Positions 5,131-57,389 of a DNA stretch of 64,000 bases are shown here, one piece after another (positions within the stretch are counted from its first letter, which is position 1; the number at the start of each line of letters is the position of its first letter). The translations under genes were made by a program, and so were the position numbers. This stretch comes from a virus. The notes under the pieces were generated by a model. It made no database searches, had not been told where the DNA came from, and saw only the letters and a program-made list of their open reading frames with translations. Where the stretch lies: IMG/VR virus record IMGVR_UViG_3300045988_135453; one strand, written 5' to 3'.

Positions 5131-6060
5131 CTATCGGGGTGGCGGTTTGAACTTTCCTTGTGAATCTTCGGCTACAGAAATGTATGGCACCACTTCTTCG
5201 CGAATGATGTCGAGAAATAGTTGTGCGGCACGCTTCTTGGGAACGTCCTGCATACAGTGGGCGTTGCTCATCAACTGCTGTTCGAGTCCTACGATTGGAC
5301 GCGCTACAAGGGTAGGGTGGTTGCGCAGGTAGAGCTTAGGCATGAAGGTGACGTACTTGGTTTCTTCCACCGAAGCAAGAGCTTCGTCAGGGTCGCTGAT
5401 GATGCACTTGATGTTGAGCTTATATAGGTCACGCTGTATGTATTGATGAAAAGTCTCAATGGCACGTTCACCTACGTCAGGCATGATGATGGGGTGCTTC
5501 AGAATGTCCTCATACGACACCTTTGAGAGTGAGGCAAGCGGATGGGTGTCGCGCATAATAGCATACACGTTAAAGGGTATGCAGGGTCTTGACTCTATTC
5601 CTTCGTGACGGTATGCCATATTCATTGTGAAAGCAAGATCTAACATGTGCGCCTTTAGCGACTGATTTAGAAAATATGCTTTGGTGAAGTCAGCATTGAT
5701 ACGCACGTTGGGGTATCTCTCCATGAATATCAATGCTGCCATACGAATATACGGAGAAATAAACGAGCCTACACCAATGCGCAATTCGCCGGTCATGCAG
5801 TTGTTGAGGGCATTGATTTGCTCTTTGCAGTCCTCGGTCTGCTTCAGTATCTCTTTGGCACGAGGCAACAGGGCTTCACCACTTTCGGTGAGCATAATGC
5901 CGTGTGATGTGCGAATAAGCAATTTGCAGCCCAACTCGTCCTCCAGGGCACGAATGTGCTGGCTTACCGCCGACTGGGTGACGCAACAACGTGTGGCAGC
6001 TGTACTAAACGACTTTGTTTCGGCGACATAAACAAAGGAGCGTAAATGTCTTAGTTCCAT
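5131..6060 (-). CDS. LysR-family transcriptional regulator
   Basis: 309 aa. N-terminus MELRHLRSFVYVAETKSFSTAATRCCVTQSAVSQHIRALEDELGCKLLIRTSHG is the canonical LysR wHTH signature. Length and C-terminal half fit a LysR substrate-binding domain. Confidence 0.9.
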   Translation of the reverse strand: MELRHLRSFVYVAETKSFSTAATRCCVTQSAVSQHIRALEDELGCKLLIRTSHGIMLTESGEALLPRAKEILKQTEDCKEQINALNNCMTGELRIGVGSFISPYIRMAALIFMERYPNVRINADFTKAYFLNQSLKAHMLDLAFTMNMAYRHEGIESRPCIPFNVYAIMRDTHPLASLSKVSYEDILKHPIIMPDVGERAIETFHQYIQRDLYKLNIKCIISDPDEALASVEETKYVTFMPKLYLRNHPTLVARPIVGLEQQLMSNAHCMQDVPKKRAAQLFLDIIREEVVPYISVAEDSQGKFKPPPR

Positions 6061-10144: not shown

Positions 10145-10201
10145 CTGAATAGTTTTTGTGTTGTTATCCTGAATACAACCTCTTTACCTGGTTGCTAAAT
10201 G

Positions 10202-10274
10202 TTGCGGAGAAGGGACTCGAACCCTCGATCTCTTGGTTATGAGCCAAGTGAGCTGCCAGCTGCTCCACCCCGCT
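10202..10274 (-). tRNA. tRNA-Met (anticodon CAU), initiator-like
   Basis: Minus-strand sequence AGCGGGGTGGAGCAGCTGGCAGCTCACTTGGCTCATAACCAAGAGATCGAGGGTTCGAGTCCCTTCTCCGCAA folds as a 73-nt cloverleaf. Features: U8, D stem GAGC/GCTC, anticodon loop CTCATAA, T arm GAGGG-TTCGAGT-CCCTT. The 5' half is nearly identical to bacterial tRNA-fMet. No encoded CCA. Confidence 0.85.
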
Positions 10275-16795: not shown

Positions 16796-19700
16796 CTATT
16801 TGTTCTTCATAAACTGATTTGCCTTTGTCATGCTGTCATAAAGCTTGCCACGGCCATACATATCAATCTTGGCTTCGATTGGCTGCTCCAGACGTTGTAG
16901 GAGCGTGTTTACGGCTTGCAGAAGGGCGACGTTGGTGTTAGCTTGGTAAGACACCATTTCGTCGCTTACAGAAGATCCTGCGGCTATCGTGGGGCTTGTT
17001 TCGGCTACATTGCCAGCGTCGTAGGCGCGACGACCTGAATAGTTGCGGTCGTAATTGACGAGAGCCTTCAACAACTGAGGATTGTTCATCATCATTGCCT
17101 GGGTTGTCTCACGTCCGATTACCAACTCGGGACCATTTTCGGCTACCAGGGACGGATGACCGTTGATGGTGGTGGCGGTAGGACGTGTAAGGAGGTTTAC
17201 GCCGTCGTGTGGCTTATTGTCCTCGGTTGCCCAATAAAGACTACCATCGTTGCCGACGAACGGACGGAGGTCTTGCACGTTGCCGGAATCGTAGGTGAGC
17301 ATACCCGACGTTACCTTCATGTTTGATTTTTTGTTTGAGCTGCTCTTCTTGCTGAAAGCAGAGCTGATAGCCCACTGGAGCAAACCATTTAAGGTTGCCG
17401 TGACAACGGCAGCCGCGATAGGGCCAGCGATAGGACCCAGAAAGTCGAAACACTTGGCAACGGCACCTGCAAGCGAGAGGTTCACACGCGCCTCTGTACT
17501 ATCCGCCTCGCTCTTCACGGCCTCGTCATCGGTCTTCTTTTTAGCCGCTATAGTCGTTGCAAGCACCTGCTCGGTGCCTGCAAGCATGACATCTTGCCCG
17601 ATCTTTGTTATCTGCTTCTGATCCTCGCTACCCTCTTTTGTTGTCTGGGTCATGTTCTTCTGGCCCTTCTCCACAGCCTTTTCCTGATCTTTGACTCCTT
17701 TTTTCTTTATTTCGGCAAGCTCTTTTTGATGTTTCTTTTCATCTGAAAGTTCCTTTTTGCGATTCTTCTTATCCTTATCATCTTTCTTACCAACCTTGAT
17801 ATTAGCGTTAAGAAGCGCATTTGCACCACCCATAGCAATGTCGGCAGCCGCCTCGCCCATATCACTATTACCAGTGGCAACATCAACGGCCGCAGATCCG
17901 ATTTGTCCTCCAAGACCGGCTACCTCCTTATTATAATCATCAATCGTTCCGTCAGGATGACGTTTCTGCCATGCTCTTGGTGGTTCGTCGGTTTGAGGAA
18001 CACTACCGTCGGGATTTGACAATGGCGTGCCATCCTCCTTTGTAGAAACAACATAGCCCGATTTATCCTCGTAATGGTCGCCTGTCCATCGCACCCACAA
18101 AGGATTAGACTCTGTGCCGAAATTGCGCCAATCAATACCATTGAAATCGGTATAGTTGGCTTTTGCGTTGGCACGCGCCGCGTCGATGTCGGGCTGGGCG
18201 TTTGCTCTGCCCCGTTTGGCCGCTGCATCGTTGATAGCCTTCCACATCTGAGTGTTGACATCGTTGACAGCCATCTTTCCCCATGATTCAAGCATAGACT
18301 TGAGGGCAGACTTTATAGCGTCATTTGCGCTCTCGGCATCATAGCGCATTTCAGCAAGAGCCTGGCCTACGGCTGCGCCAAAATCCTCAATGGGCCGCAC
18401 AAGTTCCTTCATCTGCGAGAGGCGCGACTTCATGGCTGTTGCCATCTGATTGGCATAGGCAAGTTCCGCCTCCTGACGGGCACGTTCGGCTTCGTCGATA
18501 AGCTGCTTGTTCTTCGTGTTACGTTCTACAAAGGCGTAATAATCTTCAGCAGCTTGCATACGCGCCTTCATCAGTTCTATCTCCGGGTCGGCCGTGAGAT
18601 CGGCAAGACCGAGATTAGAGAGAAAGTTTGTGCGCTTGCCAAACATCTTGCTTTCGTTCTCCATCTTGCGCAGTTTTGCTTGCTGGGCAAGATTGCGCTT
18701 GTTGGATGACCACCAAAAATCAACTATTTTCTTTGCAGAGTCATACTTCTTTTTCTCGGCTTCCGCATAATTGTCCGAATACTGGATAAGGTTCTGATAA
18801 AAAGCCTTCCAACTATCTTCGCTCTCCCCCAACGATGTCTTGATACGAGCAGCCATGCCGTCGGGATCATCGCCAAAGAGCATTTTCATCAACATTCCCC
18901 TACCCTTCGTAGTAGTAACATCGATCGTATAAAGTTGGGCTATATTCCGGCGAGCTGCCTCAAACATCTCTTTGATGACCTTCTTACGCTTCTCGAAAGC
19001 CGAGTTGTCGAGAACCTCCTTACCGCCAACCATCTTCTTCGTAATGGTTGTCTCCTCCTTTGTAGGCGCGGCATAACCCATTTCATTGAAGTTGTCATAC
19101 GAGTTCTGCTGAACAATACCCGTATAGTCATGCTCCATAGCAATCTTACGGCGAGCCTCCATCTGCTTGAGCTGCATCTTCAGAAGTTCCTGTTCGCTGC
19201 GTGTGGCTTTTGCGAAGATTTGCGCTGTGATGGAGTTCATAGACAGACCGAGGCTGTTGCCCAACTGCTCCATAAGTTTGCGCAAATTTTCGATGTTGTT
19301 GTTCAATATGCCGTCCAACAAATCTTTTGAAAGGTTTACACCCGTCTCATCCGCTTGTTCAACCATATCAGCAGCCATCATCTTCTTTGCGTCTTCCCAT
19401 TTGTTTTCCTTGCCAGCCACAGCAAGGCGTACCTGAGAACGGGCTATTTCTTTGTTTTGTATTAGAGGAAGGACGAACTGCTCCTGCTCAGTCTTGTCCA
19501 TCTTAAGAGATATAGCTTGAGCGATTTTTGCGTTAATCTGACGGTCATAGTAATTGTCCACGTCATCCATGATAGCCTTCGCCTGATCTTGCTTCTGCTT
19601 CAGTTTCTCACGCCAAGCACGTTCTTGGTCGCGCCTGTCTCGAGCCTCCTGACGGATTGCGTCTTTATCCGGAGCGTCTTTTCCGAGAGTGCCTGGATCG

Positions 19701-22700
19701 TCTTCGGTATAATCCGTATATCCTACAGGCACCCAGTTTTTATAAGCCTTATCAATATTAATTAACGTATTCGATCTTCTTCTTGTCGCATTGACATACC
19801 AACGAGAAACAGCAAGAAAATCGACGAGATCTTTTTGAGTCTGAAAGTCTGTAGAAGGAGCCGCCTTGCTGTTTTTGTCATAAGTGTCACGATATATATA
19901 ACCTTGCTTGCCTATTTTCCAATTAAACCCATCAACCAAGCCCGTCTTCTCCTTCGGAGCCATTTTCGCCAATTTCATAAACAGAGCATCGCCACCTATT
20001 CCTGCGGTTACCCATCGGTCTATGTCCTGGAATGTGACACCAAGTTTTGTCAACCCAAACTTCTCGACATAAGCCATCAATGCGTTGGAAGCTGCATTTC
20101 TGTTGGAATCCAACTTAGGCAATGCTTGTTGTTTCGCTTGCTCACGCATACGGTAATAAGTAGCTCTTTGAGCCTCTTGTGCCAGTTCTGAATAATGGTC
20201 TCGCAAATCCTTGACGCTCTTAATCTCGATGCCAAGTTTAGTGATATAAGAGCGGAAATCCCTGTTAAATCGTGATATAATTCCCTGACGTTCCTTTTGC
20301 GAAAGGTTTGCCTCGCTTATCATCCGCTTATAGTTTGCAAGCTTTTTGTTTAGATTACTGGTCTCCACGGCAGCTTGTCCAAGAGTTTCGCGCCATGCGT
20401 TAGCTTGTCGCTGTGCTTCCTTCTCGGCCTGTGCTGCCTCCTTTGCACGTTGTGCATATCCATATATAGCTCCTGCCACACCGACAATGATGCTCGCAAG
20501 GGCTATCCACGGATTCAGCTTCATTGTCTTATTCAACGTGCTTTGCGCTGCGTTAGCCGTGAAGAGAGCTCTCACATATTGGAACATGGCCTTTCCAGCC
20601 ATACCGAGTGCTGCTACATATTGATAAAGAAGTCTCAGTCCAGAATATACACCTTGCGATGCCATATATCCGATAATCACTGGAAGAAATGTTGCGATAC
20701 CTTTTAGCGAAATAAGGACCATCTGCAAAGCAACCTGCAACGTTCCTTTCAACAATGGGCTGCTTGTCATGGTCTTCGACATCTCATACCACCATTCTGC
20801 CATTCCCTTCACTGCATCCACACCATCAGGATTGACAAATGCCTTCTCCCAAAGATTATTGGCTCTTTCGAGGATACCTATTGCACTCATCTGTTGCATC
20901 GAGTATTCCTTGCCTACAGCGGTGGCTTCCTCGAAAGCTTCCTGCGACTCGTAGAGATGGTCTTTCAACATGTCCACGTTCTTAGCCATTGTAACCATAG
21001 AAGAAATGAGTCGTTGACCGTCGCCACCTACGTCCTCGAAGATTTCACCAAGAGCATTCATATTGCCCTTCTCCTTCATCTTCTCAAGAATGAGGACAAT
21101 AGCATCCATAGCGTTACCTGCCTGATACATGCTGTTAATGGTTCCAGCAGGAATGGCAAGGTCTTTTTCTATCAAGTTATGATTCTTCTGCAACGCCACG
21201 ATAAACTTAGACATAGCGGTGGCTGCAACTTCGGGCGAAGCCATCTGCGCACTGAACGCACTACCAAGGGCGAGTAACTGGTCGGTTGTTATACCGGCTG
21301 TTCGTGCCACACCCGTGCATCTCTTCGCAAATTCAGTAATGTCACTGCTCGTGGCAGTAGATGTAGAAGCCAACTTAAACATAGAAGATCCTACAGCTTC
21401 AATGGATTTCTCGAGTCCCATCTTCGGGATAAGACCCATCACTTCCGTCATCTTCAGCAATGATGGGAGGGCCTTTTCACCCATTTCCTCGCCGATTGCT
21501 ACGTTAATTTTATCGGCGGCTCTTACAAATTGAGCCATACCTTCCACTCCGTACTTTCCTACGCCGAGCTTAGATGCCTCATACGCGAGTTGTGCCAGTC
21601 CATTCACGCTTGTTCTGGTGTCGATTTTAGCCAGTTCGGTGGAGAGTTGTTTTACCTGCTCCATCGTTAGACCGCTGACTTTACGGATGTCAGTCAACGA
21701 ACCCGAATACTCAAAGTTTTTCTTGATGGCACCCGCAACGAGGTCTTTTACATGATTGAATATCGCAAACAATCCGACGTATGCCGTGAGGTTCTTCATC
21801 GCTGTATGCCATGCCCCACCCTGCTTGTTGGCCGCGCCCGTCACCTCGTCGATGTTCTTCTTCAGTTCTTTCATCGACTTCTGCTTGTCGGCAAACTCCT
21901 TGCTCTTGGTATTGATTTGGTTCAGTTCCTCTTCAAGCTGCTTGTATGCACGGCGCAGTTCGTCAAGGGAGGCCTTGCCTTGCTTGCTACGAGTGAGAAT
22001 GTCGTTAAGAGCCATCTGCGACATACGGGTGCCCTTAAGCGTCTGTTCAAGCATGGAGTATTGGCGACGGAGGTCGGCAACATACTTGCTGCCAGCAGGG
22101 AGTTGTTGTATCTTCTGCTGTATCACCTCCATCGTGCGCTTGATGTCTTCGCCCGAAGCCTTGTTAGGTTCAGCCAACACCTGCTTCATCTGTTTCCAGC
22201 TCATTGATGTTTTCTGAGCCTTACCCGACACAGCCTCCAGTCGCTTCTCTATCTCCTGGAGCTCTTTGTTGTATTGCGCAATGTCGCCAGTATTTGCTGT
22301 AGGAGTTTTGTCACGAGCCTCAGTAAGCGTGGTCTTAGCGCGTCGCAGGTCGGAAGCCGAAGCATTACCATTGCTCACAGCCTGACGTGCCTCAGTTACG
22401 CTCATCTTGCCCTTACGTCTGTCCTCCTCGGCTTCAAGCTGCTTCAATGTGGCAAGGTTCTGCTGATACGACGCATCCGACTTTTGCAGCGAACCAACAA
22501 GGTCACGCTGTTGCTTAATGGCCTTATCGAGCCACTGATCGGATTGGTTCTTTACATTCTTCAAGCCATCGGCTATATTAACATACTGACCCTCGATAAG
22601 GCGCATTTGGTCGCCCACCTGCTTCATCTCGCTTCGTATCTGCTCTGCCCTCTTCAGGTCGGCATCCGAGCCGGTAAGACCTGCGAGAGCCGACTTACCC

Positions 22701-22984
22701 GAACCCATAGCACGGCGAAGATCACGCAGTTTAGTATTGGCAAGGTCTTGCACCACCTCGCCCAATCGCTTCGTGTCCTCGATATTGTCACGCTGTACTT
22801 GCGAGAGAGCCTTTAGCGTGCGTTCTGCTTGCTTGCATTCAGCCGTATTAGCCTGTCCTGCGGCAGTCATCTTCTGAATGTCGGCAGTATATTTCTGCAC
22901 AAGAGCGTCAATCTCTTCCAATACCTTTTTGGCTGTAGAGGCATTGGCCGTGATTACTACTTTTGCTAATCTTTGTGTTGCCAT
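16796..22984 (-). CDS. tail tape measure protein (2062 aa)
   Basis: Very long, coiled-coil-rich ORF. The central region ...MTEVMGLIPKMGLEKSIEAVGSSMFKLASTSTATSSDITEFAKRCTGVARTAGITTDQLLALGSAFSAQMASPEVAATAMSKFIVALQKN resembles the TP901-family TMP core, followed by hydrophobic TM-like segments. CA-rich leader at 22993-23004. Confidence 0.85.
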   Translation of the reverse strand: MATQRLAKVVITANASTAKKVLEEIDALVQKYTADIQKMTAAGQANTAECKQAERTLKALSQVQRDNIEDTKRLGEVVQDLANTKLRDLRRAMGSGKSALAGLTGSDADLKRAEQIRSEMKQVGDQMRLIEGQYVNIADGLKNVKNQSDQWLDKAIKQQRDLVGSLQKSDASYQQNLATLKQLEAEEDRRKGKMSVTEARQAVSNGNASASDLRRAKTTLTEARDKTPTANTGDIAQYNKELQEIEKRLEAVSGKAQKTSMSWKQMKQVLAEPNKASGEDIKRTMEVIQQKIQQLPAGSKYVADLRRQYSMLEQTLKGTRMSQMALNDILTRSKQGKASLDELRRAYKQLEEELNQINTKSKEFADKQKSMKELKKNIDEVTGAANKQGGAWHTAMKNLTAYVGLFAIFNHVKDLVAGAIKKNFEYSGSLTDIRKVSGLTMEQVKQLSTELAKIDTRTSVNGLAQLAYEASKLGVGKYGVEGMAQFVRAADKINVAIGEEMGEKALPSLLKMTEVMGLIPKMGLEKSIEAVGSSMFKLASTSTATSSDITEFAKRCTGVARTAGITTDQLLALGSAFSAQMASPEVAATAMSKFIVALQKNHNLIEKDLAIPAGTINSMYQAGNAMDAIVLILEKMKEKGNMNALGEIFEDVGGDGQRLISSMVTMAKNVDMLKDHLYESQEAFEEATAVGKEYSMQQMSAIGILERANNLWEKAFVNPDGVDAVKGMAEWWYEMSKTMTSSPLLKGTLQVALQMVLISLKGIATFLPVIIGYMASQGVYSGLRLLYQYVAALGMAGKAMFQYVRALFTANAAQSTLNKTMKLNPWIALASIIVGVAGAIYGYAQRAKEAAQAEKEAQRQANAWRETLGQAAVETSNLNKKLANYKRMISEANLSQKERQGIISRFNRDFRSYITKLGIEIKSVKDLRDHYSELAQEAQRATYYRMREQAKQQALPKLDSNRNAASNALMAYVEKFGLTKLGVTFQDIDRWVTAGIGGDALFMKLAKMAPKEKTGLVDGFNWKIGKQGYIYRDTYDKNSKAAPSTDFQTQKDLVDFLAVSRWYVNATRRRSNTLINIDKAYKNWVPVGYTDYTEDDPGTLGKDAPDKDAIRQEARDRRDQERAWREKLKQKQDQAKAIMDDVDNYYDRQINAKIAQAISLKMDKTEQEQFVLPLIQNKEIARSQVRLAVAGKENKWEDAKKMMAADMVEQADETGVNLSKDLLDGILNNNIENLRKLMEQLGNSLGLSMNSITAQIFAKATRSEQELLKMQLKQMEARRKIAMEHDYTGIVQQNSYDNFNEMGYAAPTKEETTITKKMVGGKEVLDNSAFEKRKKVIKEMFEAARRNIAQLYTIDVTTTKGRGMLMKMLFGDDPDGMAARIKTSLGESEDSWKAFYQNLIQYSDNYAEAEKKKYDSAKKIVDFWWSSNKRNLAQQAKLRKMENESKMFGKRTNFLSNLGLADLTADPEIELMKARMQAAEDYYAFVERNTKNKQLIDEAERARQEAELAYANQMATAMKSRLSQMKELVRPIEDFGAAVGQALAEMRYDAESANDAIKSALKSMLESWGKMAVNDVNTQMWKAINDAAAKRGRANAQPDIDAARANAKANYTDFNGIDWRNFGTESNPLWVRWTGDHYEDKSGYVVSTKEDGTPLSNPDGSVPQTDEPPRAWQKRHPDGTIDDYNKEVAGLGGQIGSAAVDVATGNSDMGEAAADIAMGGANALLNANIKVGKKDDKDKKNRKKELSDEKKHQKELAEIKKKGVKDQEKAVEKGQKNMTQTTKEGSEDQKQITKIGQDVMLAGTEQVLATTIAAKKKTDDEAVKSEADSTEARVNLSLAGAVAKCFDFLGPIAGPIAAAVVTATLNGLLQWAISSAFSKKSSSNKKSNMKVTSGMLTYDSGNVQDLRPFVGNDGSLYWATEDNKPHDGVNLLTRPTATTINGHPSLVAENGPELVIGRETTQAMMMNNPQLLKALVNYDRNYSGRRAYDAGNVAETSPTIAAGSSVSDEMVSYQANTNVALLQAVNTLLQRLEQPIEAKIDMYGRGKLYDSMTKANQFMKNK

Positions 22985-24141: not shown

Positions 24142-24259
24142 GTGACTTGGATTTTTATTCTATCAACAGATTTCACAGATTTCACAGAAATAGAATGTTC
24201 TTTTCAAGTATTGAATGTTCGCCATTAGCAAAGCACATGGATTCTTCACTCTTCGTTCT

Positions 24260-24775
24260 TCACTCTTCACTTTTCTCTTCATTCTCCTCCTTATCCTTCA
24301 TCAGCTCTTTCAGTTTCACATTGAAGTGTCGCTCGGTCTTGTCAGCCACAATCTTTTGAAGCACTCTTGCCCAGGCCGCTCCGTTGCATGTGCTCTCATT
24401 TTCGAGTATGCTGACAAACTGCACCAGGCAGTACATGGCGGTGAGCTGGTTGGCGAGGTGGGTGTTCATATAGCCAAGAATGTTGCGGTCGAGATACGAG
24501 GCGAGGCAGATACACATTATGAGCACCGAGAAGGTCCACACCATTTTTGCCATTTTCTTGGAGCGCAACTTGCCGTCCATCTTACACTTCGGGTTACGCT
24601 TTATCTCCTCGCGGTATCTTTGGTAAATGCGACGGTTGCACCTCCACGCCGTATAGCAGTCGATGATGAGGGCGAAGAAGCACACGGTGATAAAATTGAT
24701 AGAGGGTTCGATGTGAACCCACAGCAAGCCGAGCACTGCGGCAATGGCTCGCGAGACGTAGAATGGATTGTTCAT
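24260..24775 (-). CDS. holin (Phage_holin_4_1 / TcdE-like family)
   Basis: 171 aa with several TM segments. FALIIDCYTAW and LVQFVSILENES match the conserved (D..TG) and (SILEN) blocks of this holin family. Charged C-terminal tail. Confidence 0.6.
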   Translation of the reverse strand: MNNPFYVSRAIAAVLGLLWVHIEPSINFITVCFFALIIDCYTAWRCNRRIYQRYREEIKRNPKCKMDGKLRSKKMAKMVWTFSVLIMCICLASYLDRNILGYMNTHLANQLTAMYCLVQFVSILENESTCNGAAWARVLQKIVADKTERHFNVKLKELMKDKEENEEKSEE

Positions 24776-24850
24776 GTTTTTGTGTTGTGTTTTGTGTTGT
24801 TGTTGTCCTGAATTTTATACAACAAAGTTACTGATAAGATGCTACGCAAT

Positions 24851-24888
24851 GCGGACATGGTGGGGTACGGGATATTGAGGATGTCCGC
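24851..24888. promoter_or_regulatory. inverted repeat in the divergent control region
   Basis: GCGGACAT (24851-24858) / ATGTCCGC (24881-24888), 22-nt spacer, between the divergent starts at 24775 (-) and 24938 (+). Confidence 0.3.
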
Positions 24889-24937
24889 ACGGGGGACGGG
24901 GAATATTGTAACTTTGACTATATAAAAACACAAAACT

Positions 24938-25696
24938 ATGTCAGGAATCACGCAAAATACATTGGCCCGCATCGACAAGTGGCTCTCTTACGGCACGAGT
25001 ATGCAGACGGCGTTCCCCAAGCTGGATCAACGCTACCGTATGCAGATATGCTCGGAGTTTTATAAACGATGGGTGCAAAACAAGGACATCGACCCTCGAA
25101 CGGTGTGCCGCAACATTGCCCGACGCGACTATGAGCTGTTCTTCAACCAGGCAGCACAGGGCAACAAAGAGGCGCAGGAGTATGTGCTTGCGCTGAAGAT
25201 TACGCTCGATGACGATGGCAACATCTGTCCGCGCACGGTCACGGAGCTCAACAACGACGTACTGGTGTGCAACCATCTGATACGGTTCTTCCAGACCGAC
25301 GAGAGTCCACGCCATAAGGGTATGTTTCTCAGTGCGGCAGAATGGCTCATCCGCACGGGCAAGCAGCAGAACAACGACCGTGCCGTGACTAAAGGCATGG
25401 AAGCATTGGGCAAAATCTACAAAGACTTCGACGAGGAGCGCGACGCTACAGACGAGATGCCGGACATGAGTCGCATTGCCATCACGCAGGACGTGAGCAT
25501 CGTGAAGCGCGACCGCATCAACTACACCGAAGAGGAGAAGCTGCGCATGGCCCGCAAGTATGGTCTTACTACAAAAGACCTCCAAGAGATAGAAGACGAA
25601 GAAATGTTTAGCGACAAGCGAGAGGAAGAACCTGACTACTTCGAGTATATGGAAGGTGAAAGTGAAGAGGGGAAAGTGAAGAGTGATACTGAATAA
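24938..25696 (+). CDS. hypothetical protein with acidic C-terminus (first gene of the plus-strand operon)
   Basis: 252-aa ATG ORF with protein-like composition. The longer antisense ORF 24941..25822 looks like a shadow. A small-terminase role is possible by position but unsupported. Confidence 0.6.
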   Translation: MSGITQNTLARIDKWLSYGTSMQTAFPKLDQRYRMQICSEFYKRWVQNKDIDPRTVCRNIARRDYELFFNQAAQGNKEAQEYVLALKITLDDDGNICPRTVTELNNDVLVCNHLIRFFQTDESPRHKGMFLSAAEWLIRTGKQQNNDRAVTKGMEALGKIYKDFDEERDATDEMPDMSRIAITQDVSIVKRDRINYTEEEKLRMARKYGLTTKDLQEIEDEEMFSDKREEEPDYFEYMEGESEEGKVKSDTE

Positions 25697-27865: not shown

Positions 27866-28615
27866 ATGATAGAACTGAATAAGATATATAATGAAGACTG
27901 CCTGAAAGGGATGAAAAGGATTCCGGACGGGAGTGTGGATTGCGTGATATGCGATTTGCCGTATGGTACTACTGCTTGCGCTTGGGATAGCGTAATTCCT
28001 TTTGACAAGTTGTGGGAGCAATACAGAAGAATTATAAAGCGAAACGCTCCAATTGTTCTGTTCGGCAATGAGCCTTTTAGCACATTTCTGAGAGTTTCAA
28101 ATATTAAGAATTGGAAATATGACTGGATTTGGGACAAGAAAATGAAAGTGGGTTTTTTGAACGCAAAAAAAAGACCTCTCAAGCAGTATGAAAATATATC
28201 TGTTTTCAGTTATGGCGATTGCATCTACAATCCTCAAATGACTAAAGGTTTATTTAGAAACAAAAAGTCGTATGATAATAGAGAGGGAAATGGGGATGGC
28301 GTGTATCGTAAGTTTGGAAACATTGATGTAAAAAATGACATTTACTATCCTTCAAACTTTTTGGAGTATAGCAATGCCGCACAGAAAGGTAAGATTCATC
28401 CCACACAAAAGCCCGTAGCTCTCATTCAGTACCTCATTCGCACTTACTCCAACGAGGGCGACACCATATTAGACAACTGCATGGGCAGCGGCACCACTGC
28501 CATTGCAGCCATTCGCGAGAAGCGCAACTTCATCGGCTTCGAGCTCAACAAGGAGTATTACGACAAGGCTTGTAAGCGCATCAAACTGGAGCTGGCACAG
28601 CCTACCCTCTTCTGA
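27866..28615 (+). CDS. DNA methyltransferase, N4/N6 (PF01555-like, beta class)
   Basis: 249 aa. DPPY-type motif CDLPYG near the N-terminus, IHPTQKP and SAM motif DNCMGSGTTAIAA near the C-terminus. Confidence 0.85.
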   Translation: MIELNKIYNEDCLKGMKRIPDGSVDCVICDLPYGTTACAWDSVIPFDKLWEQYRRIIKRNAPIVLFGNEPFSTFLRVSNIKNWKYDWIWDKKMKVGFLNAKKRPLKQYENISVFSYGDCIYNPQMTKGLFRNKKSYDNREGNGDGVYRKFGNIDVKNDIYYPSNFLEYSNAAQKGKIHPTQKPVALIQYLIRTYSNEGDTILDNCMGSGTTAIAAIREKRNFIGFELNKEYYDKACKRIKLELAQPTLF

Positions 28616-28647: not shown

Positions 28648-28884
28648 ATGAGTAACAACCGACACAAATATTTCAACAAGGTTCCGCCGTTCAAGCCGGA
28701 CCCTGAACACTACACACGCAAGCAACGCTCATGGAAGGCGAAGGAGGCTTACGAGACGGAGGATGATGCTTGGGAATATCTAAACCAGAACCCGAAGCTA
28801 CAGGCGCAGGGTATGACGGTGTACAGATGCAGGACGTGCAACAAATGGCACATAGGACATAAGCCTTCGGCAATTAGGAATTAG
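28648..28884 (+). CDS. small protein with C-terminal Cys/His knuckle (78 aa)
   Basis: ATG ORF preceded by an exact CAACACAAAAAC leader (28631-28642). Contains ...YRCRTCNKWHIGH... Confidence 0.5.
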   Translation: MSNNRHKYFNKVPPFKPDPEHYTRKQRSWKAKEAYETEDDAWEYLNQNPKLQAQGMTVYRCRTCNKWHIGHKPSAIRN

Positions 28885-29047
28885 GAATTTTGAGTTTTGA
28901 ATTGTCGCCGTTGGCAATTTTGAATTATCCAATTTTGAATTATTCAAAACCAAGCAGGAGAAACGCAGCAACAACTCAAAAATCAAAAACTCAAAATCGG
29001 CATAGCCGATAATTCAAAACTCAACACTCAAAACTCAAAACTCAAAA
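28885..29047. repeat. palindromic TTTTGA(G/A)T-octamer / hairpin element, complete copy A (between the small ORF and terL)
   Basis: The left half has TTTTGAGTTTTGAATT words plus the hairpin ATTGTCGCCGTTGGCAAT (28901-28918). The right half has AATTCAAAACTCAAAA words plus the hairpin ATCGGCATAGCCGAT (28996-29010). It ends at the terL ATG. Confidence 0.85.
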
Positions 29048-29048
29048 A

Positions 29049-31043
29049 ATGCAGCAAGCGCATAACATATACTTAACTAAATTCCAGCAACAGTCGCTAT
29101 ACATGGGAGCCAAGGACGAGCGAGTGATTGCTGCCCGCCGTGTGGGTAAGACCGACGGACTTGTGGCTCCTTACGTCTGGATGGCAAGCAACTCCATGCC
29201 TGGTATGCTCGGCGCATGGGTGGCTGTGTCGCGGCAACAGGGCTTCGGCAAGACCATACCGAGTACGATGGCGGCCATGGAGCGTATGTTCGGCTTTACG
29301 CAGGGCATACACTTCGGTTGGGGTCGCCCGCCGAAACATGCCCGTGAGAGTATCTTCAAGCCTAAGAACTATGACAATTACATCTGGTTTGCCAATGGTG
29401 CCGGATGGGTGCTTATATCCCTCTCTCAGACTGCGAGTGCAAACAGTTATACCTTCAGTGCTCTTGTGGGGGACGAAGCGAGGTTCTTTCCGCTAAAAAA
29501 GGTAACTGACGAGTTGCTGCCGGCTCTTTCTGGCCAGACTCATCCGTTGGGTGACATCAACTTTACAGAGTATAATCCGATGTATAAGAGTACGCGATTC
29601 CTCTCCGATGCTGCGCTCACAGCCAAAGGGTCGTGGCTCGAAAAAGAGGAGGAGAAGTTAGACTTGACCGTTGAGACAGGTCCGTTCAAGGGCAAGACCT
29701 ACAGATGGGTGCAGGAGCAGTTGGAGGATTATGCCGACAAGGTTATACTCTACAACGATATGCTTTACAATGCGAAGAAGTCGGGGCATTCGGTGCATGT
29801 GGTGCCGGCAGAAGTAAAAGAAGATATTCGCGACACGGCTCTGAAGATGATGAAGCATGAGGGAGAGTTTCGTATCATGCCTAATCATGGCAAGCACATC
29901 ACGAAGGCAATGGTGGATATGGCGGTAAACTATAAGCTACTCTCCGTGGATGATGCCGAACTGGTTTACGACTATGAATATCTGATTACGCCTGGAGAGG
30001 ATTTTGAGATGCAGATGTTCCTGCGCTCAAAGAAATTTCAAGACGGTTATCTGCGTGAGCTGCGCCGTGTGGCTTTCTGTGTGCGTCGTGCGTCATCGCT
30101 CGACAATGTGGACATTTTGGGTGAGGATTACATAAGGCAGATGCGCCGCGATTTGCCTCCGATGACCTTCGCAATTTCAATTCTCAACATCAAAGTAAAG
30201 AAGTCAAACGACGGATTTTACTCCAACCTCGACATTGATCATGTCCACGGGTATATCCCCGACGAGATAGACCCACTATCGTCTGCAAAATTTTCCACGC
30301 AAAAGGTGTCGGGCATCATCGGTGGAAGGAAAGTTACGAGCGAGAGCTATCAACCTGATTTCAAGGAATTGGGCGAGCGCAACGACTCACGCATGGACTC
30401 CGACTGCATCAACTCCCTACCTCTGTATACAGCCTTGGATTACAATGCTAACATAAATACGCTTGTGGTTGGGCAGATGTACGAGCGTGACGGCATGGAA
30501 TGTCTGAACGTTATCAAGAGCTTTTATGTGAAGAACGAGCGCAAACTGCGTGAGTTGATTGCTGATTTTTCGGATTATTACGCACCGAAGCGAGCCATCA
30601 ACCGCGACGTGACGTATTTCTATGATGCTACGGCTAAGCAGGGCGCATCCTACGCTTCATCGGACGAGCGGTTCTATATGACAGTGATTGCAGAATTAGA
30701 GAAGCGAGGGTGGAACGTGACGGCAATAGACATGGGCGCACCGGAAAAGCACGAGGTGAAGCACAAGATTATCAACGACGGCTTGGCTCACCTCTCCTAC
30801 CCTGCCATCCGCATCAACCAGGTGAACAATCCCGACCTTATTATTGCCATGCAGCTGTGCGAGGTGCAGATTTCGTATCAAGGATTCCACAAAAATAAGA
30901 GTCAAGAAAAAAAGCCCGAGAGTGAAGACACGCTGCCCTTGGAAAACCGTACCGATTTTACGGACGCTTTTGACACTCTGTACTTAGGTTGCAAGTTCTT
31001 CCGTGGCGGTGGCGGTTGGTTTGTGCTACCGAGTGGAAGATGA
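29049..31043 (+). CDS. terL: terminase large subunit
   Basis: 664 aa. Walker A-like AARRVGKTDG, Walker B ALVGDEA, and a long C-terminal region compatible with the nuclease domain. Confidence 0.8.
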   Translation: MQQAHNIYLTKFQQQSLYMGAKDERVIAARRVGKTDGLVAPYVWMASNSMPGMLGAWVAVSRQQGFGKTIPSTMAAMERMFGFTQGIHFGWGRPPKHARESIFKPKNYDNYIWFANGAGWVLISLSQTASANSYTFSALVGDEARFFPLKKVTDELLPALSGQTHPLGDINFTEYNPMYKSTRFLSDAALTAKGSWLEKEEEKLDLTVETGPFKGKTYRWVQEQLEDYADKVILYNDMLYNAKKSGHSVHVVPAEVKEDIRDTALKMMKHEGEFRIMPNHGKHITKAMVDMAVNYKLLSVDDAELVYDYEYLITPGEDFEMQMFLRSKKFQDGYLRELRRVAFCVRRASSLDNVDILGEDYIRQMRRDLPPMTFAISILNIKVKKSNDGFYSNLDIDHVHGYIPDEIDPLSSAKFSTQKVSGIIGGRKVTSESYQPDFKELGERNDSRMDSDCINSLPLYTALDYNANINTLVVGQMYERDGMECLNVIKSFYVKNERKLRELIADFSDYYAPKRAINRDVTYFYDATAKQGASYASSDERFYMTVIAELEKRGWNVTAIDMGAPEKHEVKHKIINDGLAHLSYPAIRINQVNNPDLIIAMQLCEVQISYQGFHKNKSQEKKPESEDTLPLENRTDFTDAFDTLYLGCKFFRGGGGWFVLPSGR

Positions 31044-31046: not shown

Positions 31047-31128
31047 GAGTTTTGAATTTTGAGTTTTGAATTTTGAATTGTGCGCTACGCGCATTTTGAA
31101 TTATTCATTTTTGAATTTAGAATTTTGT
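31047..31128 (+). repeat. TTTTGA(G/A)T-octamer / hairpin element, half copy B (after terL)
   Basis: GAGTTTTGAATTTTGAGTTTTGAATTTTGAATTG, then hairpin TGCGC tac GCGCA (31081-31093), then TTTTGAATTATTCATTTTTGAATTT. Confidence 0.85.
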
Positions 31129-31223
31129 AATCGGCTTAGTCGCTTGCCTTAGCAAGATTTATCGGCAAGCTGATTAGGGAATATTCAATTTTTAGTTTTT
31201 AGGCTTGCATAAGAAAAAGCGAA

Positions 31224-31255
31224 GGGCAGACGTTATCACAACGGCTGCCCTTTTT
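31224..31255 (+). terminator. rho-independent terminator of the plus-strand operon
   Basis: GGGCAG (31224-31229) / CTGCCC (31245-31250) with inner CGTT/AACG pairs, followed by T5 (31251-31255). Confidence 0.7.
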
Positions 31256-37570: not shown

Positions 37571-38746
37571 TTAGTCATTGATCAACATCGGCATACACAA
37601 TGTCATGATGCAGGACGCGGGATCATCGGCTGTAATGACCATTGCCCGGGTTGGGTCAGACACGGCTATGCGCACCGTGTCTGACGGGATAGTCTGTAAG
37701 CAATTGCAAATTTCGTTCGTCGCAGTGCCAATACAAAAATTGTCGGGACAGTCATCCGACAACAAGGGCACCTGGTCTTCGGCGGCTCTTGCAAAATCGG
37801 TATCTTGGGCTGAGAGGTTCAAGAACGCACCCTTCTTTTTTATGATCACAAGGTTCGATTCGCTACTTGCGAAGACACCGACACGTCTTATAGTGTTTAC
37901 AAGTTCTTTCTTGTCAACAACGCAGAAGTAAGGGTTTTTCGCCGGAATTACTGCTGTGTAGGAGGGATAGCGGCCTTCTGCGCAACGACAACGAATCTCC
38001 ATACCATCTGACGTAAAGACCATTATGTTGCCATCCGTTGAAATGTCCACGGTACCATCTTCGCCTAAAACGGACAATACCTTGAAATAACATAAGCTGA
38101 TAAGCAAGGGGCGAGGCTCTCCCCCGCGGTAAAAGTCGTTGCCACCGTGGGCAGGATCATTGGAGTGGCTGCACTTGAACAGGATATGGCCGTTAGTTCC
38201 GACAAAATTGATGCGTGAGCGGTCTTCGGACACATCAAGAAGCAGACACGCCATGACAGGACGAAGCTCGTTCTCAACGGTGAAACGCGAAGCATCGGTA
38301 ACGACCGACTGAAAGAGCGAAAGAGACAAAGACAGGCGCATTGTCTTCTCTTCGTCAAGATCTGTCATATTGGGATATTCGGCACCATCAAAACAAGGAA
38401 TGTCGCACTTTCCTGTACGAGTCTCGTCTGTACTATATTCCATTGTCAGACTCTTCTTGTCGTTAAACGTAAACGTGACAACACAATCGGACAAAGAAGA
38501 CAGAAGCGAAACAATCTCCTTGTAAGGAATACACACAGGACCCTCATATTTACCTCCGACAAGAGTCAAGGGTGCAGGGAGAGAAAGACGCGACTCGCCC
38601 GTTGACGACACGAAAAAGAAACGGTCGTCTTTCTGTGTTATCAGCACATTGCCAAGGATGGCTATCGTGTTTCTTGAACTTATACATTTTATAGACTTGT
38701 TGAGCGCCGCATAAAGAGCACGTGAAGATTGAGCTTGAAGTTTCAT
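37571..38746 (-). CDS. dnaN: DNA polymerase III beta sliding clamp homologue
   Basis: 391 aa. ILGNVLI, GTNGHILF, EGRYPSYTAVIP and the C-terminal LCMPMLI align with E. coli beta blocks ILGNLLL, ATDGHRLA, DGRFPDYRRVLP and VVMPMRL. Confidence 0.85.
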   Translation of the reverse strand: MKLQAQSSRALYAALNKSIKCISSRNTIAILGNVLITQKDDRFFFVSSTGESRLSLPAPLTLVGGKYEGPVCIPYKEIVSLLSSLSDCVVTFTFNDKKSLTMEYSTDETRTGKCDIPCFDGAEYPNMTDLDEEKTMRLSLSLSLFQSVVTDASRFTVENELRPVMACLLLDVSEDRSRINFVGTNGHILFKCSHSNDPAHGGNDFYRGGEPRPLLISLCYFKVLSVLGEDGTVDISTDGNIMVFTSDGMEIRCRCAEGRYPSYTAVIPAKNPYFCVVDKKELVNTIRRVGVFASSESNLVIIKKKGAFLNLSAQDTDFARAAEDQVPLLSDDCPDNFCIGTATNEICNCLQTIPSDTVRIAVSDPTRAMVITADDPASCIMTLCMPMLIND

Positions 38747-38899
38747 ATTTTTGAGTTTTGAATTATGAATTATGCGCGTCGCACATTTTGAGTTGTCGAG
38801 TTTTGAATTTTGAGTTTGTTTATCATCTTAATTCAAAAATGAATAATTCAAAATGCGCTTGCGCATAATTCAAAACTCAAAACTCAAAACTCCTAATTC
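38747..38899. repeat. palindromic TTTTGA(G/A)T-octamer / hairpin element, complete copy C (between the ssb-like gene and dnaN)
   Basis: The + strand left half carries TTTTGAGTTTTGAATTATGAATT and the hairpin ATGCGCGTCGCACAT (38772-38786). The right half carries AATTCAAAA... and the hairpin ATGCGCTTGCGCAT (38853-38866), then ...AATTCAAAACTCAAAACTCAAAACTCCTAATTC. The two halves are inverted copies of each other. Confidence 0.85.
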
Positions 38900-39505
38900 T
38901 TAAAACGGCAGGTCGCCTACGTCGGCATCGGTAAAGCCAGCGAGCGGATCGGTGCCCTCGGCTGGTGCCACATATCCGGTGGCTGCTCCTGCTACGCCTA
39001 CATTCGGTGTGGCGTATGGTGAAGGCTGCTGTGTAGGCTGTGGCTGGTAGAGCATAGCCAGGCGCTTGTTCATGCGCTGACGGATAGCCTTGAAGAGGTG
39101 GGTGTTCTCATCGGTGGGGTCTTGGCCCATAATCTCGGGGTCGCGTTCTTTGTTGGCTTCCTTCACTTGCTCTACGAGCTTCGGGAATTTCTGCGCTACC
39201 GACTTGATGTAGCCAACCGAGAAAGACATCTGCATCTCGTGCGTCGGTACGGAAACATTGGCATTGCCACGTTCCTGGGCTGAACGACGCACTACATTCT
39301 TATAATTCTCACTCAGAGGCCAGATGTTAACACGCATCTTTGCCACCATACGGTTGGGGTCTTGCGGATGACGCTCCAACTTGATTTCGTTTACATCCAA
39401 AGGAGTGCAAATGTACACTCTCTCGGGATTGTCATTGTCAATGCCCTTTAACACCTTTACACCGTTAGGTGCAAGATAGTCAATGTTGCCGCTGTAACTT
39501 GCCAT
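38900..39505 (-). CDS. putative ssDNA-binding protein (SSB-type acidic C-terminal tip ...DADVGDLPF)
   Basis: 201 aa. Low-complexity P/Q/A/G linker (QPQPTQQPSPYATPNVGVAGAATGYVAPAEG) followed by an acidic tail ending DLPF, as in bacterial SSB (DDDIPF). Sits between the clamp and helicase genes. The N-terminal domain was not recognised as a classical OB SSB. Confidence 0.45.
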   Translation of the reverse strand: MASYSGNIDYLAPNGVKVLKGIDNDNPERVYICTPLDVNEIKLERHPQDPNRMVAKMRVNIWPLSENYKNVVRRSAQERGNANVSVPTHEMQMSFSVGYIKSVAQKFPKLVEQVKEANKERDPEIMGQDPTDENTHLFKAIRQRMNKRLAMLYQPQPTQQPSPYATPNVGVAGAATGYVAPAEGTDPLAGFTDADVGDLPF

Positions 39506-46102: not shown

Positions 46103-46230
46103 TCGATTTTTAATTCTTAAATTTGATGCAAAGATATATTTTTAATATCGTTGTTGCAAATTTTAAAATCGTTTTAACAATTTCTTTAACTTATATTTAC
46201 ACTATAATCAATTTTTATAATATTTACGTT

Positions 46231-50169: not shown

Positions 50170-50170
50170 A

Positions 50171-50253
50171 CCTACGTTTTTATTTACTTAAACCTACGTT
50201 TTTATGTACCAAAACCTACGGATTTGTTTACCAACTCCTACGTTTTTGTCTAC
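50171..50253 (+). repeat. four direct 17-nt iterons at 22-nt spacing (ori copy A, left array)
   Basis: CCTACGTTTTTATTTAC (50171), CCTACGTTTTTATGTAC (50193), CCTACGGATTTGTTTAC (50215), CCTACGTTTTTGTCTAC (50237). Confidence 0.9.
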
Positions 50254-50297
50254 TTCGTATGCTCTAACTCGTTGGTTTTCAGCTTCTCAAAAAATCT

Positions 50298-50381
50298 TTA
50301 ATATAATATAATTACAATCTATTATTTTATTCCGTTTTTAAAACAAAAAAAAATCCATATCTTATAATTATATTATATTAA
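50298..50381. repeat. 17-bp perfect inverted repeats flanking a 50-nt AT-rich core (ori copy A)
   Basis: TTAATATAATATAATTA (50298-50314) and its exact complement TAATTATATTATATTAA (50365-50381). Core at 50315-50364. Confidence 0.9.
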
Positions 50382-50425
50382 GAGGTTTTAGAAGAATTGA
50401 TTATCAGTTAGTTATCTACGGTGAA

Positions 50426-50508
50426 GTAAACAAAAACGTAGGAGTTGGTAAACAAATCCGTAGGTTTAAGTAAACAAATCCGTAGGAGTTGGTAAACAAA
50501 TCCGTAGG
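50426..50508 (-). repeat. four iterons in inverted orientation at 22-nt spacing (ori copy A, right array)
   Basis: GTAAACAAAAACGTAGG (50426) and GTAAACAAATCCGTAGG (50448, 50470, 50492). A partial fifth copy, GTAAACCA, lies at 50514. Confidence 0.9.
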
Positions 50509-50573
50509 TGTTGTAAACCAAAACAGCACACTTTTGTAGTGACTTGGTAAAAACTTTATTAGGATTTTACATA

Positions 50574-51131
50574 TTACAAGTCCTCGTTGAGTATCGCCTC
50601 GCTTTTTTCAAAGTTATCCATATCGGTGTACATCAGACAAATAGAAACACCAGACCCGAAGCTGGGCGTTTTCAATGATTGAAGGATAAAACCAATGCTG
50701 TTGCCACCTGTTTCGTCAGGAATATTAAACGCCAGTCCAATAACATCGCCGTCTGGACCTCGGTTTTCCTCGGGCGTGGTGTTAGGATATTTCCGTTGCA
50801 AACTCTCGGTTAAGTTCAAGAAGGGGATATGAGCAGACTCTACAGTTGGATATTGCATTTCAACCGCAGCACTGAACACCATTTTGCTTTTAGGATTATA
50901 AGCAACATTAATCGTAGCGTTCTCACCCATAAACGTGCCGTTAAAGACTCTACAGCCTTGCCCAGCTGCTTTCGACTTCGCTGCATCGTATGTCACGCCC
51001 TTAGCCTTCAGCTTCAAGGCAAAGTTGTCCACCGTTCCGTCTAATGGTATGCCCATAAACTTCATGTGCTGCTGTGCGCTTGCTGCCATACACAGGCAGA
51101 ACGCGAACAATACTGATATTATCTTCTTCAT
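50574..51131 (-). CDS. secreted protein of unknown function between the two ori copies
   Basis: 185 aa with signal peptide MKKIISVLFAFCLCMAASAQQ. No other motif recognised. Confidence 0.6.
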   Translation of the reverse strand: MKKIISVLFAFCLCMAASAQQHMKFMGIPLDGTVDNFALKLKAKGVTYDAAKSKAAGQGCRVFNGTFMGENATINVAYNPKSKMVFSAAVEMQYPTVESAHIPFLNLTESLQRKYPNTTPEENRGPDGDVIGLAFNIPDETGGNSIGFILQSLKTPSFGSGVSICLMYTDMDNFEKSEAILNEDL

Positions 51132-51146: not shown

Positions 51147-51407
51147 TACATTTGTTCCTATTTACGTTTTTATATGCCAAAACCTACGTTTTTGTTTACC
51201 AACTCCTACGTTTTTGTTTACTTCGTATGCTCTAACTCGTTGATTTTCAACTTCTCAAAAATTCCTTAACATAATATAATTATAAGATATGAATTTTTTC
51301 GTTTTAAAAAGGAATAAAATAATAACTTATAATTATATCATATTAAGAGGTTTTGGAAGTGTTAATTATCAATTAGTTATCTACAATGATGTAAACAAAT
51401 CCGTAGG
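51147..51407. repeat. second, shorter ori-like module (copy B)
   Basis: One degenerate iteron (51147) plus two exact iterons CCTACGTTTTTGTTTAC (51183, 51205). Same spacer TTCGTATGCTCTAACTCGTTG. IRs TTAACATAATATAATTA (51266-51282) / TAATTATATCATATTAA (51330-51346). One inverted iteron GTAAACAAATCCGTAGG (51391-51407). Confidence 0.85.
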
Positions 51408-51471
51408 TGTTGCAAACCCAAACAGCACACTTTTGTAGTGACTTGGTAAAAAGATTTAGTAGGATTTTACC

Positions 51472-52749: not shown

Positions 52750-52804
52750 AATTATCAATATTAAAATGTTTTACGCTGCAAATTTAAGAATAATATTTAA
52801 CCTT

Positions 52805-54265: not shown

Positions 54266-54333
54266 AAAATTCAAAATTGATAATTCAAAATCGCGAAGCG
54301 ATAACTCAAAACTCAAAATTCAAAATTCAACAC
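54266..54333 (-). repeat. TTTTGA(G/A)T-octamer / hairpin element, half copy D
   Basis: The minus strand reads TTGAATTTTGAATTTTGAGTTTTGAGTT, then hairpin ATCGC ttc GCGAT (54290-54302), then TTTTGAATTATCAATTTTGAATTTT. It lies directly after the stop of gene 54334..54579. Confidence 0.8.
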
Positions 54334-57382: not shown

Positions 57383-57389
57383 TCTGTTT

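Follow-up and report, generated by a model that had tools for sequence, protein, structure and literature searches.

The closest described counterparts of the element treated here are three kinds of bacterial intergenic repeat. Repetitive extragenic palindromes (REPs), best compared in their Proteobacterial form, are short, GC-rich imperfect palindromes dispersed over many chromosomal intergenic junctions. They stand singly or head to head, two inverted REPs making a REPIN and REP-type mosaics making bacterial interspersed mosaic elements (BIMEs). They lie between co-directional or convergent genes and rarely between divergent ones, they are dispensable and strain-variable, and they are known targets of insertion sequences (ISs). 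The BOX elements of Streptococcus pneumoniae (boxA-(boxB)n-boxC) are intergenic, as the present modules are, and can alter the expression of their neighbours. The Correia elements of Neisseria (Correia repeat enclosed elements, CREE, or Neisseria miniature insertion sequences, NEMIS) are palindromic intergenic units of 100-160 bp that are co-transcribed, form long hairpins and show insertion polymorphism. The window analysed here, the 64,000-nt IMG/VR virus record IMGVR_UViG_3300045988_135453, is part of a tailed-phage genome and carries at four loci (copies A to D) a modular palindromic repeat made of TTTTGAR heptamers around small GC-rich hairpins.

We put at about 0.6 the probability that these four loci are copies of a dispersed modular palindromic repeat family native to Prevotella chromosomes, shared with a lineage of ~50-106 kb Prevotella phages and functionally closest to REP/BIME (REPIN), BOX and Correia elements. 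The descriptive conclusion within this, that a dispersed modular palindromic repeat family of Prevotella is common to its phages, is well supported. An earlier reading of the sequence alone had offered, as its fallback, an element like a REP, a Correia element or a miniature inverted-repeat transposable element (MITE) spreading inside a phage genome. The likeness to REPs holds, but the family is not limited to the phage; it is host-wide in Prevotella and Bacteroidota.

Abundance, many extragenic host sites downstream of genes, avoidance of divergent regions, doublets and mosaics, strain-level turnover and insertion by an IS all liken the family to REPs. Unlike REPs, the Prevotella-type modules lack the GTAG/CGTC tag, and their palindrome is just 13-15 nt long and set within heptamer arrays. 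Their T-rich arm comes first on both strands, the host belongs to Bacteroidota, phages carry them too, and no gene for a REP-associated tyrosine transposase (RAYT, TnpA_REP) was found near any copy read. Because the tag, sharp ends and a target duplication are missing and no RAYT gene was found in the loci read, we file the family as one that works like REPs, not as a member of them. With BOX it has in common a modular build, variable internal modules and complementary ends that make the transcript foldable. The sequences are unrelated, however, BOX modules measure 45-59 nt and are not heptamer arrays with mini-hairpins, and we know of no BOX element shared with phages. What sets Correia elements apart are defined terminal repeats of 26 bp, a TA duplication and an IHF site; the present family shows no sign of them.

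The repeat stands out clearly from its surroundings. TTTTGARTT occurs 32 times in the window, compared with 3.0 ± 1.7 times in dinucleotide shuffles (0 of 100 shuffles reached 32), and 30 of the 32 sites lie within positions 28885-29047, 31047-31128, 38747-38899 and 54266-54333. A repeat search of the window recovers the same four loci as related direct (D2, D6, D7) and inverted (I4, I7, I11, I14) families. The six half-elements that the sequence-only reading had described at these loci are all where it placed them. The halves are polar modules. Along the T-rich strand, two to five TTTTGAR heptamers come first, then TT(A/G)T and a mini-hairpin, and after it TTTTGARTTRT, a variable stretch of four or five bases and TTTTGAATT. 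The mini-hairpin has the form T-SSSS-N3-4-SSSS-A and is 13-15 nt long, SSSS being CGGC, GCGC, CGCC or TGCC.

Copies A (28885-29047) and C (38747-38899) are complete, each a head-to-head pair of modules. In the direction of transcription the T-rich (F) arm follows the upstream stop codon and the A/C-rich (R) arm ends 1-3 nt before the ATG of terL (29049) or dnaN (38746, minus strand), as the earlier reading had it. The F arm of copy A (28885-28949, plus strand) begins directly after the TAG at 28882-28884 and consists of TTTTGAG and TTTTGAA heptamers, the hairpin TCGCCGTTGGCAA (28905-28917) and then TTTTGAATTATCCAATTTTGAATTATTCAAAA. It is followed by the central spacer CCAAGCAGGAGAAACGCAGC (28950-28969) and by the R arm (28970-29047), in which CTCAAAA-type heptamers surround the hairpin ATCGGCATAGCCGAT (28996-29010) and which ends 1 nt before the ATG of terL. 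Copy B (31047-31128, plus strand) is a lone F module after the terL stop (31041-31043), with four heptamers, the hairpin GTGCGCTACGCGCAT (31080-31094) and then TTTTGAATTATTCATTTTTGAATTTAGAATTTTG. It sits at a convergent junction, at the end of the plus-strand gene block. Copy C is read on the minus strand. Its F arm (38826-38899) begins directly after the stop of an SSB-like gene (38900-38902) and comprises GAATTAGGAG plus three heptamers, a hairpin at 38853-38866 (ATGCGCTTGCGCAT, or ATGCGCAAGCGCAT in minus-strand reading) and then TTTTGAATTATTCATTTTTGAATTAAGA; over 33 nt this arm and the corresponding stretch of copy B are 97% identical. The R arm of copy C (38747-38816) holds the hairpin ATGCGCGTCGCACAT (38772-38786), with a U.G pair on the transcribed minus strand, and ends in CTCAAAAAT directly before the dnaN ATG (38746-38744). 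Copy D (54266-54333) is a lone module that is T-rich on the minus strand, with the hairpin ATCGCGAAGCGAT (plus strand) at 54290-54302. It lies between two minus-strand ORFs, with the stop of the ORF at 54334-54579 on one side and a possible ATG at 54257 on the other.

The stems of the mini-hairpins differ between copies yet stay complementary, as had been claimed for the window copies, and the claim survives the addition of many more. We collected 40 distinct modules from all fetched loci, chosen only by their flanks and a 13-nt core length. Paired cells made up 93.3% of the stem positions, compared with 71.9% in column shuffles (0 of 500 shuffles did as well); sliding the partners left 25-45% paired. 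CG and GC are swapped at three pairs, in 10-13 sequences, and in all modules the hairpin is flanked by TTRT (5′) and ATTTTGA (3′). Hairpin complementarity is therefore maintained. The stems fall into only about four classes, however, so few independent compensatory events lie behind the covariation. At 28905-28917 the pair ATTGTC/GGCAAT of the earlier reading is an alternative register with a G.U pair, and TCGCCGTTGGCAA itself has one C.A mismatch relative to the TCGCCGTTGGCGA of relatives. Among imperfect stems, G.U and A.C cases number about 5 and 4, counted by eye, which is too few to interpret.

The same family is present in Prevotella chromosomes. When species genomes were scanned with a loose pattern, multi-module copies turned up in assemblies of Prevotella and Prevotellaceae. 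Prevotella merdae has a complete element filling the space from nuoCD to nuoH, a junction that is also occupied in a Prevotella metagenome-assembled genome. A strict module pattern, for which less than one chance match was estimated, hit at least 120 human-gut metagenome contigs. Among the matches listed, the genes flanking host copies include those for aconitase and isocitrate dehydrogenase (acn-icd), IspF/PorV, SufB, HolB/MetF and a CorC-type transporter; PorV belongs to type IX secretion and is a marker of Bacteroidota. The window copies are 80-94% identical to host copies over 70-170 nt, and host-like and phage loci have stem classes and eleven identical 13-nt hairpins in common. Searches of the literature with the heptamer strings, and for descriptions of Prevotella REPs or MITEs, found no account of this repeat family.

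The window carries its own signs of such a host. None of 65 window genes is preceded by a Shine-Dalgarno (SD)-like motif, and their leaders are 48% A and 12% G. Five sites in the window match the Bacteroidota promoter consensus TTTG-N19-21-TAnnTTTG exactly, where 0.9 are expected. The lack of SD motifs, the A-rich and G-poor leaders and these promoters together indicate a Bacteroidota host.

The placement of the modules is strongly constrained. Genes in the fetched loci were called by a simple longest-ORF rule. The listed metagenome loci contain 133 clusters, namely 87 T-then-A doublets, 42 single arms, 2 A-T-A and 2 T-A-T arrangements; a simple A-then-T element is found in 0 of the 133. Genes flank 98 clusters on both sides among the matches listed, and these genes are co-directional in 71 cases, convergent in 25 and divergent in 2, the last compared with a 12.5% baseline (P = 2e-4). 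In host and phage copies alike the first heptamer follows the stop codon by 0-12 nt and the last precedes the ATG by 3-12 nt. Lone halves between co-directional genes mostly turn their A/C-rich strand toward the start codon.

Within the phage lineage the copies come and go. The earlier reading had made the presence of the element in relatives a test of itself, and relatives do carry it, in 6 of 80, 26 of 80 and 39 of 65 cases at three junctions. The first two sets are 80 IMG/VR contigs with a TerL 80-98% identical to that of the window. The third consists of 65 loci retrieved by an eight-sequence alignment search (a single-protein search gave 4 loci). The relatives are phylogenetically non-independent, so the counts describe diversity rather than numbers of events. 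Upstream of terL, 5 relatives have a complete element, 1 has the A/C-rich arm only and 74 have none; those 74 carry a short leader (..acatcaggataacaATG) or another insert instead. Downstream of terL, 26 have a T-rich module or its remnant and 54 have none. Between the SSB-like gene and dnaN, 16 have a complete element, 23 the A/C-rich arm only and 26 a plain A-rich leader of 20-35 nt; the 23 include 3 in which another palindrome precedes CTCAAAA heptamers and 1 truncated locus. In two relatives (L026 and L045) the outer AATTAGG flank of the element is kept and the element itself is absent. Most relatives lack copies, which means that they are dispensable for the phage.

The internal make-up of the elements is equally fluid. 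Heptamer number varies like a microsatellite, single modules are common, and bare heptamer runs with no hairpin also occur, serving as leaders in several relatives. The two arms of an element are mostly of differing hairpin class and some copies have two or three modules per arm, so the elements are mosaics rather than simple inverted duplications. An ISL3 IS sits in the centre of one host copy (L434, 6780-8387), with inverted ends of ~70 bp and a clean 8-bp duplication, CTAACAAT. As it has its own inverted ends and its own duplication, it is an insertion into the element and not its parent. In another host copy (L444, 1810-2135) the central spacer holds a GC-rich nested palindromic insert of ~330 bp. 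These two were the candidates for an autonomous parent, with arms flanking a gene, and neither is one.

How such a repeat could spread, and why its polarity is invariant, can be outlined. The elements may move or be exchanged through a process that recognises or makes use of the GC hairpin and the heptamer homology, such as the action of a host enzyme of HUH/RAYT type or recombination by homology and slippage. Bacteroidetes are the main carriers of TnpA_REP subclass 2.6, which goes with 'atypical' REPs (PMC6006769). Only the polarity and orientation that place an A/C-rich, G-free (YTCAAAA)n run before the next start codon would persist, and this run would fit the SD-less, A-rich leader rule of the phage genome. 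The T-rich arm, with its weak hairpin and UUUU behind a stop codon, would at most attenuate transcription or protect a 3′ end. The simplest way to account for both the invariant polarity and the orientation bias is a filter imposed by SD-less initiation, the T/G-rich arm being harmless behind a stop; the bare heptamer leaders of several relatives fit it. As an SD-less leader, the A/C-rich arm is tolerated and may even be of use. The phage copies probably modulate how terL and dnaN are expressed, without being essential to it.

The folding of the RNA depends on the direction of transcription. We compared the two strands of 31 distinct host doublets between co-directional genes, all with a proper stop and ATG at the junction. 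The sense RNA is less stable than the antisense in 30 of the 31, with means of -56.7 and -66.5 kcal/mol (Wilcoxon 6.5e-9, sign test 3e-8). A and C are enriched on the sense strand, GAA is commoner than GAG in its T-rich arm, and the start-proximal A/C-rich arms hold 282 heptamers versus 150 in the T-rich arms. Copy A behaves in the same way (-36.4 sense versus -57.5 antisense kcal/mol). Copy C is symmetric (-59 versus -60 kcal/mol, sense z = -8.5), and over the phage copies, which are non-independent, the sense strand is less stable in 10 of 15, which is not significant. Orientation relative to transcription therefore matters, and a strong sense duplex is not what is kept.

Several results weigh against a mobile, REP-like Prevotella repeat. 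Neither the filled and empty phage sites nor 31 host copies show sharp termini or a duplicated target site; the elements end raggedly in runs of heptamers. A scan of ~2.7 Mb of fetched loci gave no ORF with a HUH...Y (RAYT/Y1) motif, the ~85 window ORFs scanned contained no transposase Pfam family, and no module carries the classic GTAG/CGTC REP tag. Host DNA was read as loci of 4-14 kb. The 30 of 31 bias and the longer start-proximal arm are also what a selected RNA function would lead one to expect, and to call the element selfish and merely tolerated may understate its role. Finally, hairpin-free heptamer arrays serve as leaders in relatives, so part of the similarity between loci could be convergent rather than copied.

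The likeliest rival sees the element as a selected intercistronic RNA device of SD-less Bacteroidota operons that the phage has borrowed: the (UUUUGAR)n arm would mask the (YUCAAAA)n leader, a terminating ribosome would melt the outer pairs and so couple translation, and the mini-hairpins would protect RNA ends. The short distances from stop to heptamer and from heptamer to ATG in host and phage copies agree with it, although any palindrome that fills a short intergenic gap has such a geometry trivially. So does the predicted state of the start region (-18 to +3), which is about half paired. Its mean probability of being unpaired is 0.54 in host copies, 0.51 in copy A and 0.33 in copy C, and in the window copies the 25 nt that follow the upstream stop take up 74-93% of the predicted pairing. 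The device would also account for the transcription-linked asymmetry, the longer A/C-rich arm, the restriction of the elements to intergenic sites that have at least one gene upstream of them, and A-rich, G-poor leaders as the rule in the phage genome. The asymmetry weakens the very duplex that would do the masking, however. Most relatives manage terL and dnaN with a plain leader of 15-35 nt, and the 25 convergent clusters among the 98 host copies have no downstream start to control. We regard this rival as a tentative minority possibility. A more specific form of it, which we find rather doubtful, has the modules as a Bacteroidota-specific 'stop-to-start linker' that replaces SD-based coupling in SD-less operons. 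A (YUCAAAA)n ribosome-loading pad would be reversibly masked by the (UUUUGAR)n arm within the footprint of the terminating ribosome, the mini-hairpins would be end-protecting caps, and Prevotella phages, by copying the device, would adjust how much is made from terL, dnaN and other genes. If this were true, the 30 of 31 asymmetry would be the signature of mask-strength tuning.

The sequence-only reading had favoured processing of another kind, with the F half as a short-stem intrinsic terminator and the two halves as a ~60-bp duplex cut by RNase III in the manner of the T7 R sites; the idea of RNase III processing stems from Correia-type elements. A simple terminator scan does flag four mini-hairpins followed by TTTTGA, copy B does lie at the end of a gene block, and a long duplex can indeed form, as the sense fold of copy C shows. 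The selected function that was read into these features finds no such backing. The mini-hairpins have stems of 5-6 bp and stabilities of about -7 kcal/mol each (-3.9 for copy D to -7.5), they are followed by UUUUGAAUU, and most host copies lie between co-directional genes. Host copies stand within the nuo cluster and beside sufB; gene clusters such as nuo are usually co-transcribed, in which case elements there must be read through. A U-tract never follows the long hairpin, because its 3′ arm is always A-rich. Paired arms are usually of different hairpin class, which interrupts the duplex, and the sense RNA is the less stable one in copy A as in the host doublets. T7 R sites are likewise imperfect hairpins between the cistrons of a long transcript, but they are unique, conserved and bulged structures of ~50 nt, whereas the present elements are variable, absent from most relatives and disfavoured on the sense strand. 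Weak hairpins, co-directional host sites, the missing U-tract, the disfavoured sense fold and dispensability together leave the terminator and RNase III reading unsupported, and we consider it improbable. A far stronger GC hairpin, GAAGGGCAGACGTTATCACAACGGCTGCCCTTTTT, lies at 31222-31255 in the convergent junction 3′ of copy B and is outside the repeat family. It is conserved in most relatives, with or without copy B, and is a better terminator candidate than the mini-hairpin of copy B.

A classical cut-and-paste MITE, that is, an internally deleted IS mobilised in trans by a DDE transposase through terminal inverted repeats, would match the size of 80-250 bp, the inverted arms and the presence/absence polymorphism. 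In a census of the Vendrell-Fernandez type, based on tools like MITE Tracker, MITEs are common to Prevotella and its phages, 41 viral MITEs are listed in Prevotella phages, and the sharing is used to assign hosts; the census gives neither anatomy nor mechanism (PMC11602168). The present family shows sharing of exactly this sort between host and phage, but it lacks sharp terminal repeats and target duplication. No flanking direct repeat was found at the 31 host copies or the phage copies, and the ends are ragged with a variable number of heptamers. Arms of one element differ in hairpin class and single modules are common. The sole transposase found between two arms in the fetched loci is the ISL3 enzyme, with ~70-bp inverted repeats and an 8-bp duplication of its own. 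A MITE in this strict sense is therefore very improbable.

The promoter-early stem-loop (PeSL) cassettes of T4-type phages offer a further comparison. They too are short intergenic stem-loop cassettes that differ between close relatives and mark junction hot spots, but they carry an early promoter and are phage-specific, whereas the present elements belong to the host type and contain no promoter consensus. TTTG-N19-21-TAnnTTTG was tried as a promoter within the elements and occurs in no copy, all five window matches lying elsewhere. Arrays bound by protein at the DNA level (operators, nucleoid-protein or partition sites) or promoters, to which the repeated short words, the palindromic TGAATTATTCA and the likeness of tandem TTTTGAR at 28-nt spacing to the TTTG of Bacteroidota -33/-7 boxes might point, have next to no chance of being the explanation, given that the elements are nearly absent from divergent, promoter-bearing regions (2 of 98 among the matches listed), that the same family stands in unrelated host operons and that stems which vary yet stay complementary are unexpected of a fixed operator.

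The Prevotella repeat family has several consequences. It gives a host call, Prevotella, for an uncultured lineage of ~50-106 kb phages, and it shows that a phage can carry REP-like intergenic repeats of its host at core-gene junctions such as those of terL and dnaN. It is an apparently uncharacterised and very abundant repeat family of human-gut Prevotella, and its traits are unusual: the arms consist of tandem heptamers, the T-rich arm leads and the plain reverse order does not occur, and orientation is strongly biased with respect to transcription. In practice, repeats of this kind can fragment assemblies, give rise to phage-host recombination and draw in insertion sequences. If the A/C-rich arm works as a leader, the family would be a natural collection of Bacteroidota translation start regions that do not depend on SD motifs, and a handle on the differing expression levels of genes within operons.

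The genes around the copies are as follows. terL (29049-31043, plus strand) encodes 664 aa and lies downstream of copy A and upstream of copy B. The dnaN-like sliding-clamp gene (37571-38746, minus strand) encodes 391 aa and lies downstream of copy C. The 201-aa gene upstream of copy C (38900-39505, minus strand) is called SSB-like from its layout, a Q/P-rich linker and an acidic ...DADVGDLPF tail, and has no Pfam or PHROG match. Upstream of copy A lies a Cys-rich ORF of 78 aa (28648-28884, plus strand), whose final codons (IRN-stop, ATTAGGAATTAG) are built of AATTAGG heptamers from the outer edge of the copy; in element-free relatives it has other C-termini (..GHKTSG*, ..GHKTHSE*). The window also has a DNA methyltransferase gene (27866-28615, plus strand) and a tape-measure protein gene (16796-22984, minus strand). 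No cultured-phage relative turned up: neither the terL region (megablast) nor copy A (blastn) matched any of 50,697 phage records, and TerL is at most 29% identical to any record.

For the elements Rfam gave no family at gathering or E-value thresholds; the only hits, below threshold, were to plant miRNA models, which match long hairpins generically. In the whole window only a tRNA-Met, at 10201-10274 on the minus strand, passes the gathering threshold. Some of the ORFs at 600-26300 have ThyX, guanylate kinase, MazG and S49 peptidase domains, and a LysR-type regulator (HTH_1 and LysR_substrate), unusual in a phage, lies at 5134-6060 on the minus strand. The strongest single position of the window leaders is an A at -12 from the start codon (46 of 65 genes, 71%); Kozak-like A preferences have been reported for Bacteroidota, and this one fits them. 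The five promoter-consensus matches lie at 46129-46160(-), 50609-50641(-), 52779-52810(-), 56617-56647(+) and 59152-59183(-), at least three of them intergenic, and are candidate phage promoters for the host RNA polymerase.

Other palindromes built of short words occupy the same junctions in relatives (L001-L080 on both sides of terL; L327-L331, L334 and L340 upstream of dnaN). Their words are CACGAAT, GCAGAAA, ACACAAAAG/AACAGAAG, GGTAAAA, TGTTGAA and TTCCGT, and the window has an ACAGAAA-type palindromic insert of its own at ~2470-2545 (region 2340-2553). These patterns suggest that word-array palindromes may be a general class in these phages. Arrays of TCTTCAC-type heptamers lie at 24246-24289 and 25643-25686, inverted and 1.35 kb apart, around the plus-strand ORFs of 24215-25696; this word family also occurs in host-like metagenome loci.

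Two iteron-like arrays of 22-nt repeats (ACCTACGTTTTTRTTTAC...), at 50170-50530 and 51160-51450, are inverted and flank a 185-aa ORF (50574-51131, minus strand). They adjoin a gene for a ParA/MinD-type ATPase (Pfam AAA_31, CbiA; 51910-52749, minus strand), near which an AT-rich block (52790-53010) holds TATTTACC-type repeats of 8/12 nt in inverted arrangement. The arrays and the ParA-like gene together look like a plasmid-type origin and partition locus, and so the phage may be maintained as a phage-plasmid.

Two more small repeat families accompany minus-strand genes. In the block at 60.7-63.5 kb each small ORF is preceded by a cassette with a GC hairpin and CCTATTATAGAAC or CTTATTATAGGCAGATAAAAACA on the minus strand (60773-60800, 61448-61498, 62328-62378, 62809-62836 and 63186-63213); these cassettes may be early promoter/terminator units of a non-canonical type. 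The second family, TCCGCTTA(A/T)CCGTG(T/A)TGCGGTAGGGCT, has an internal hairpin and lies beside the starts of three minus-strand ORFs, at 57383-57434, 58205-58254 and 58792-58841.

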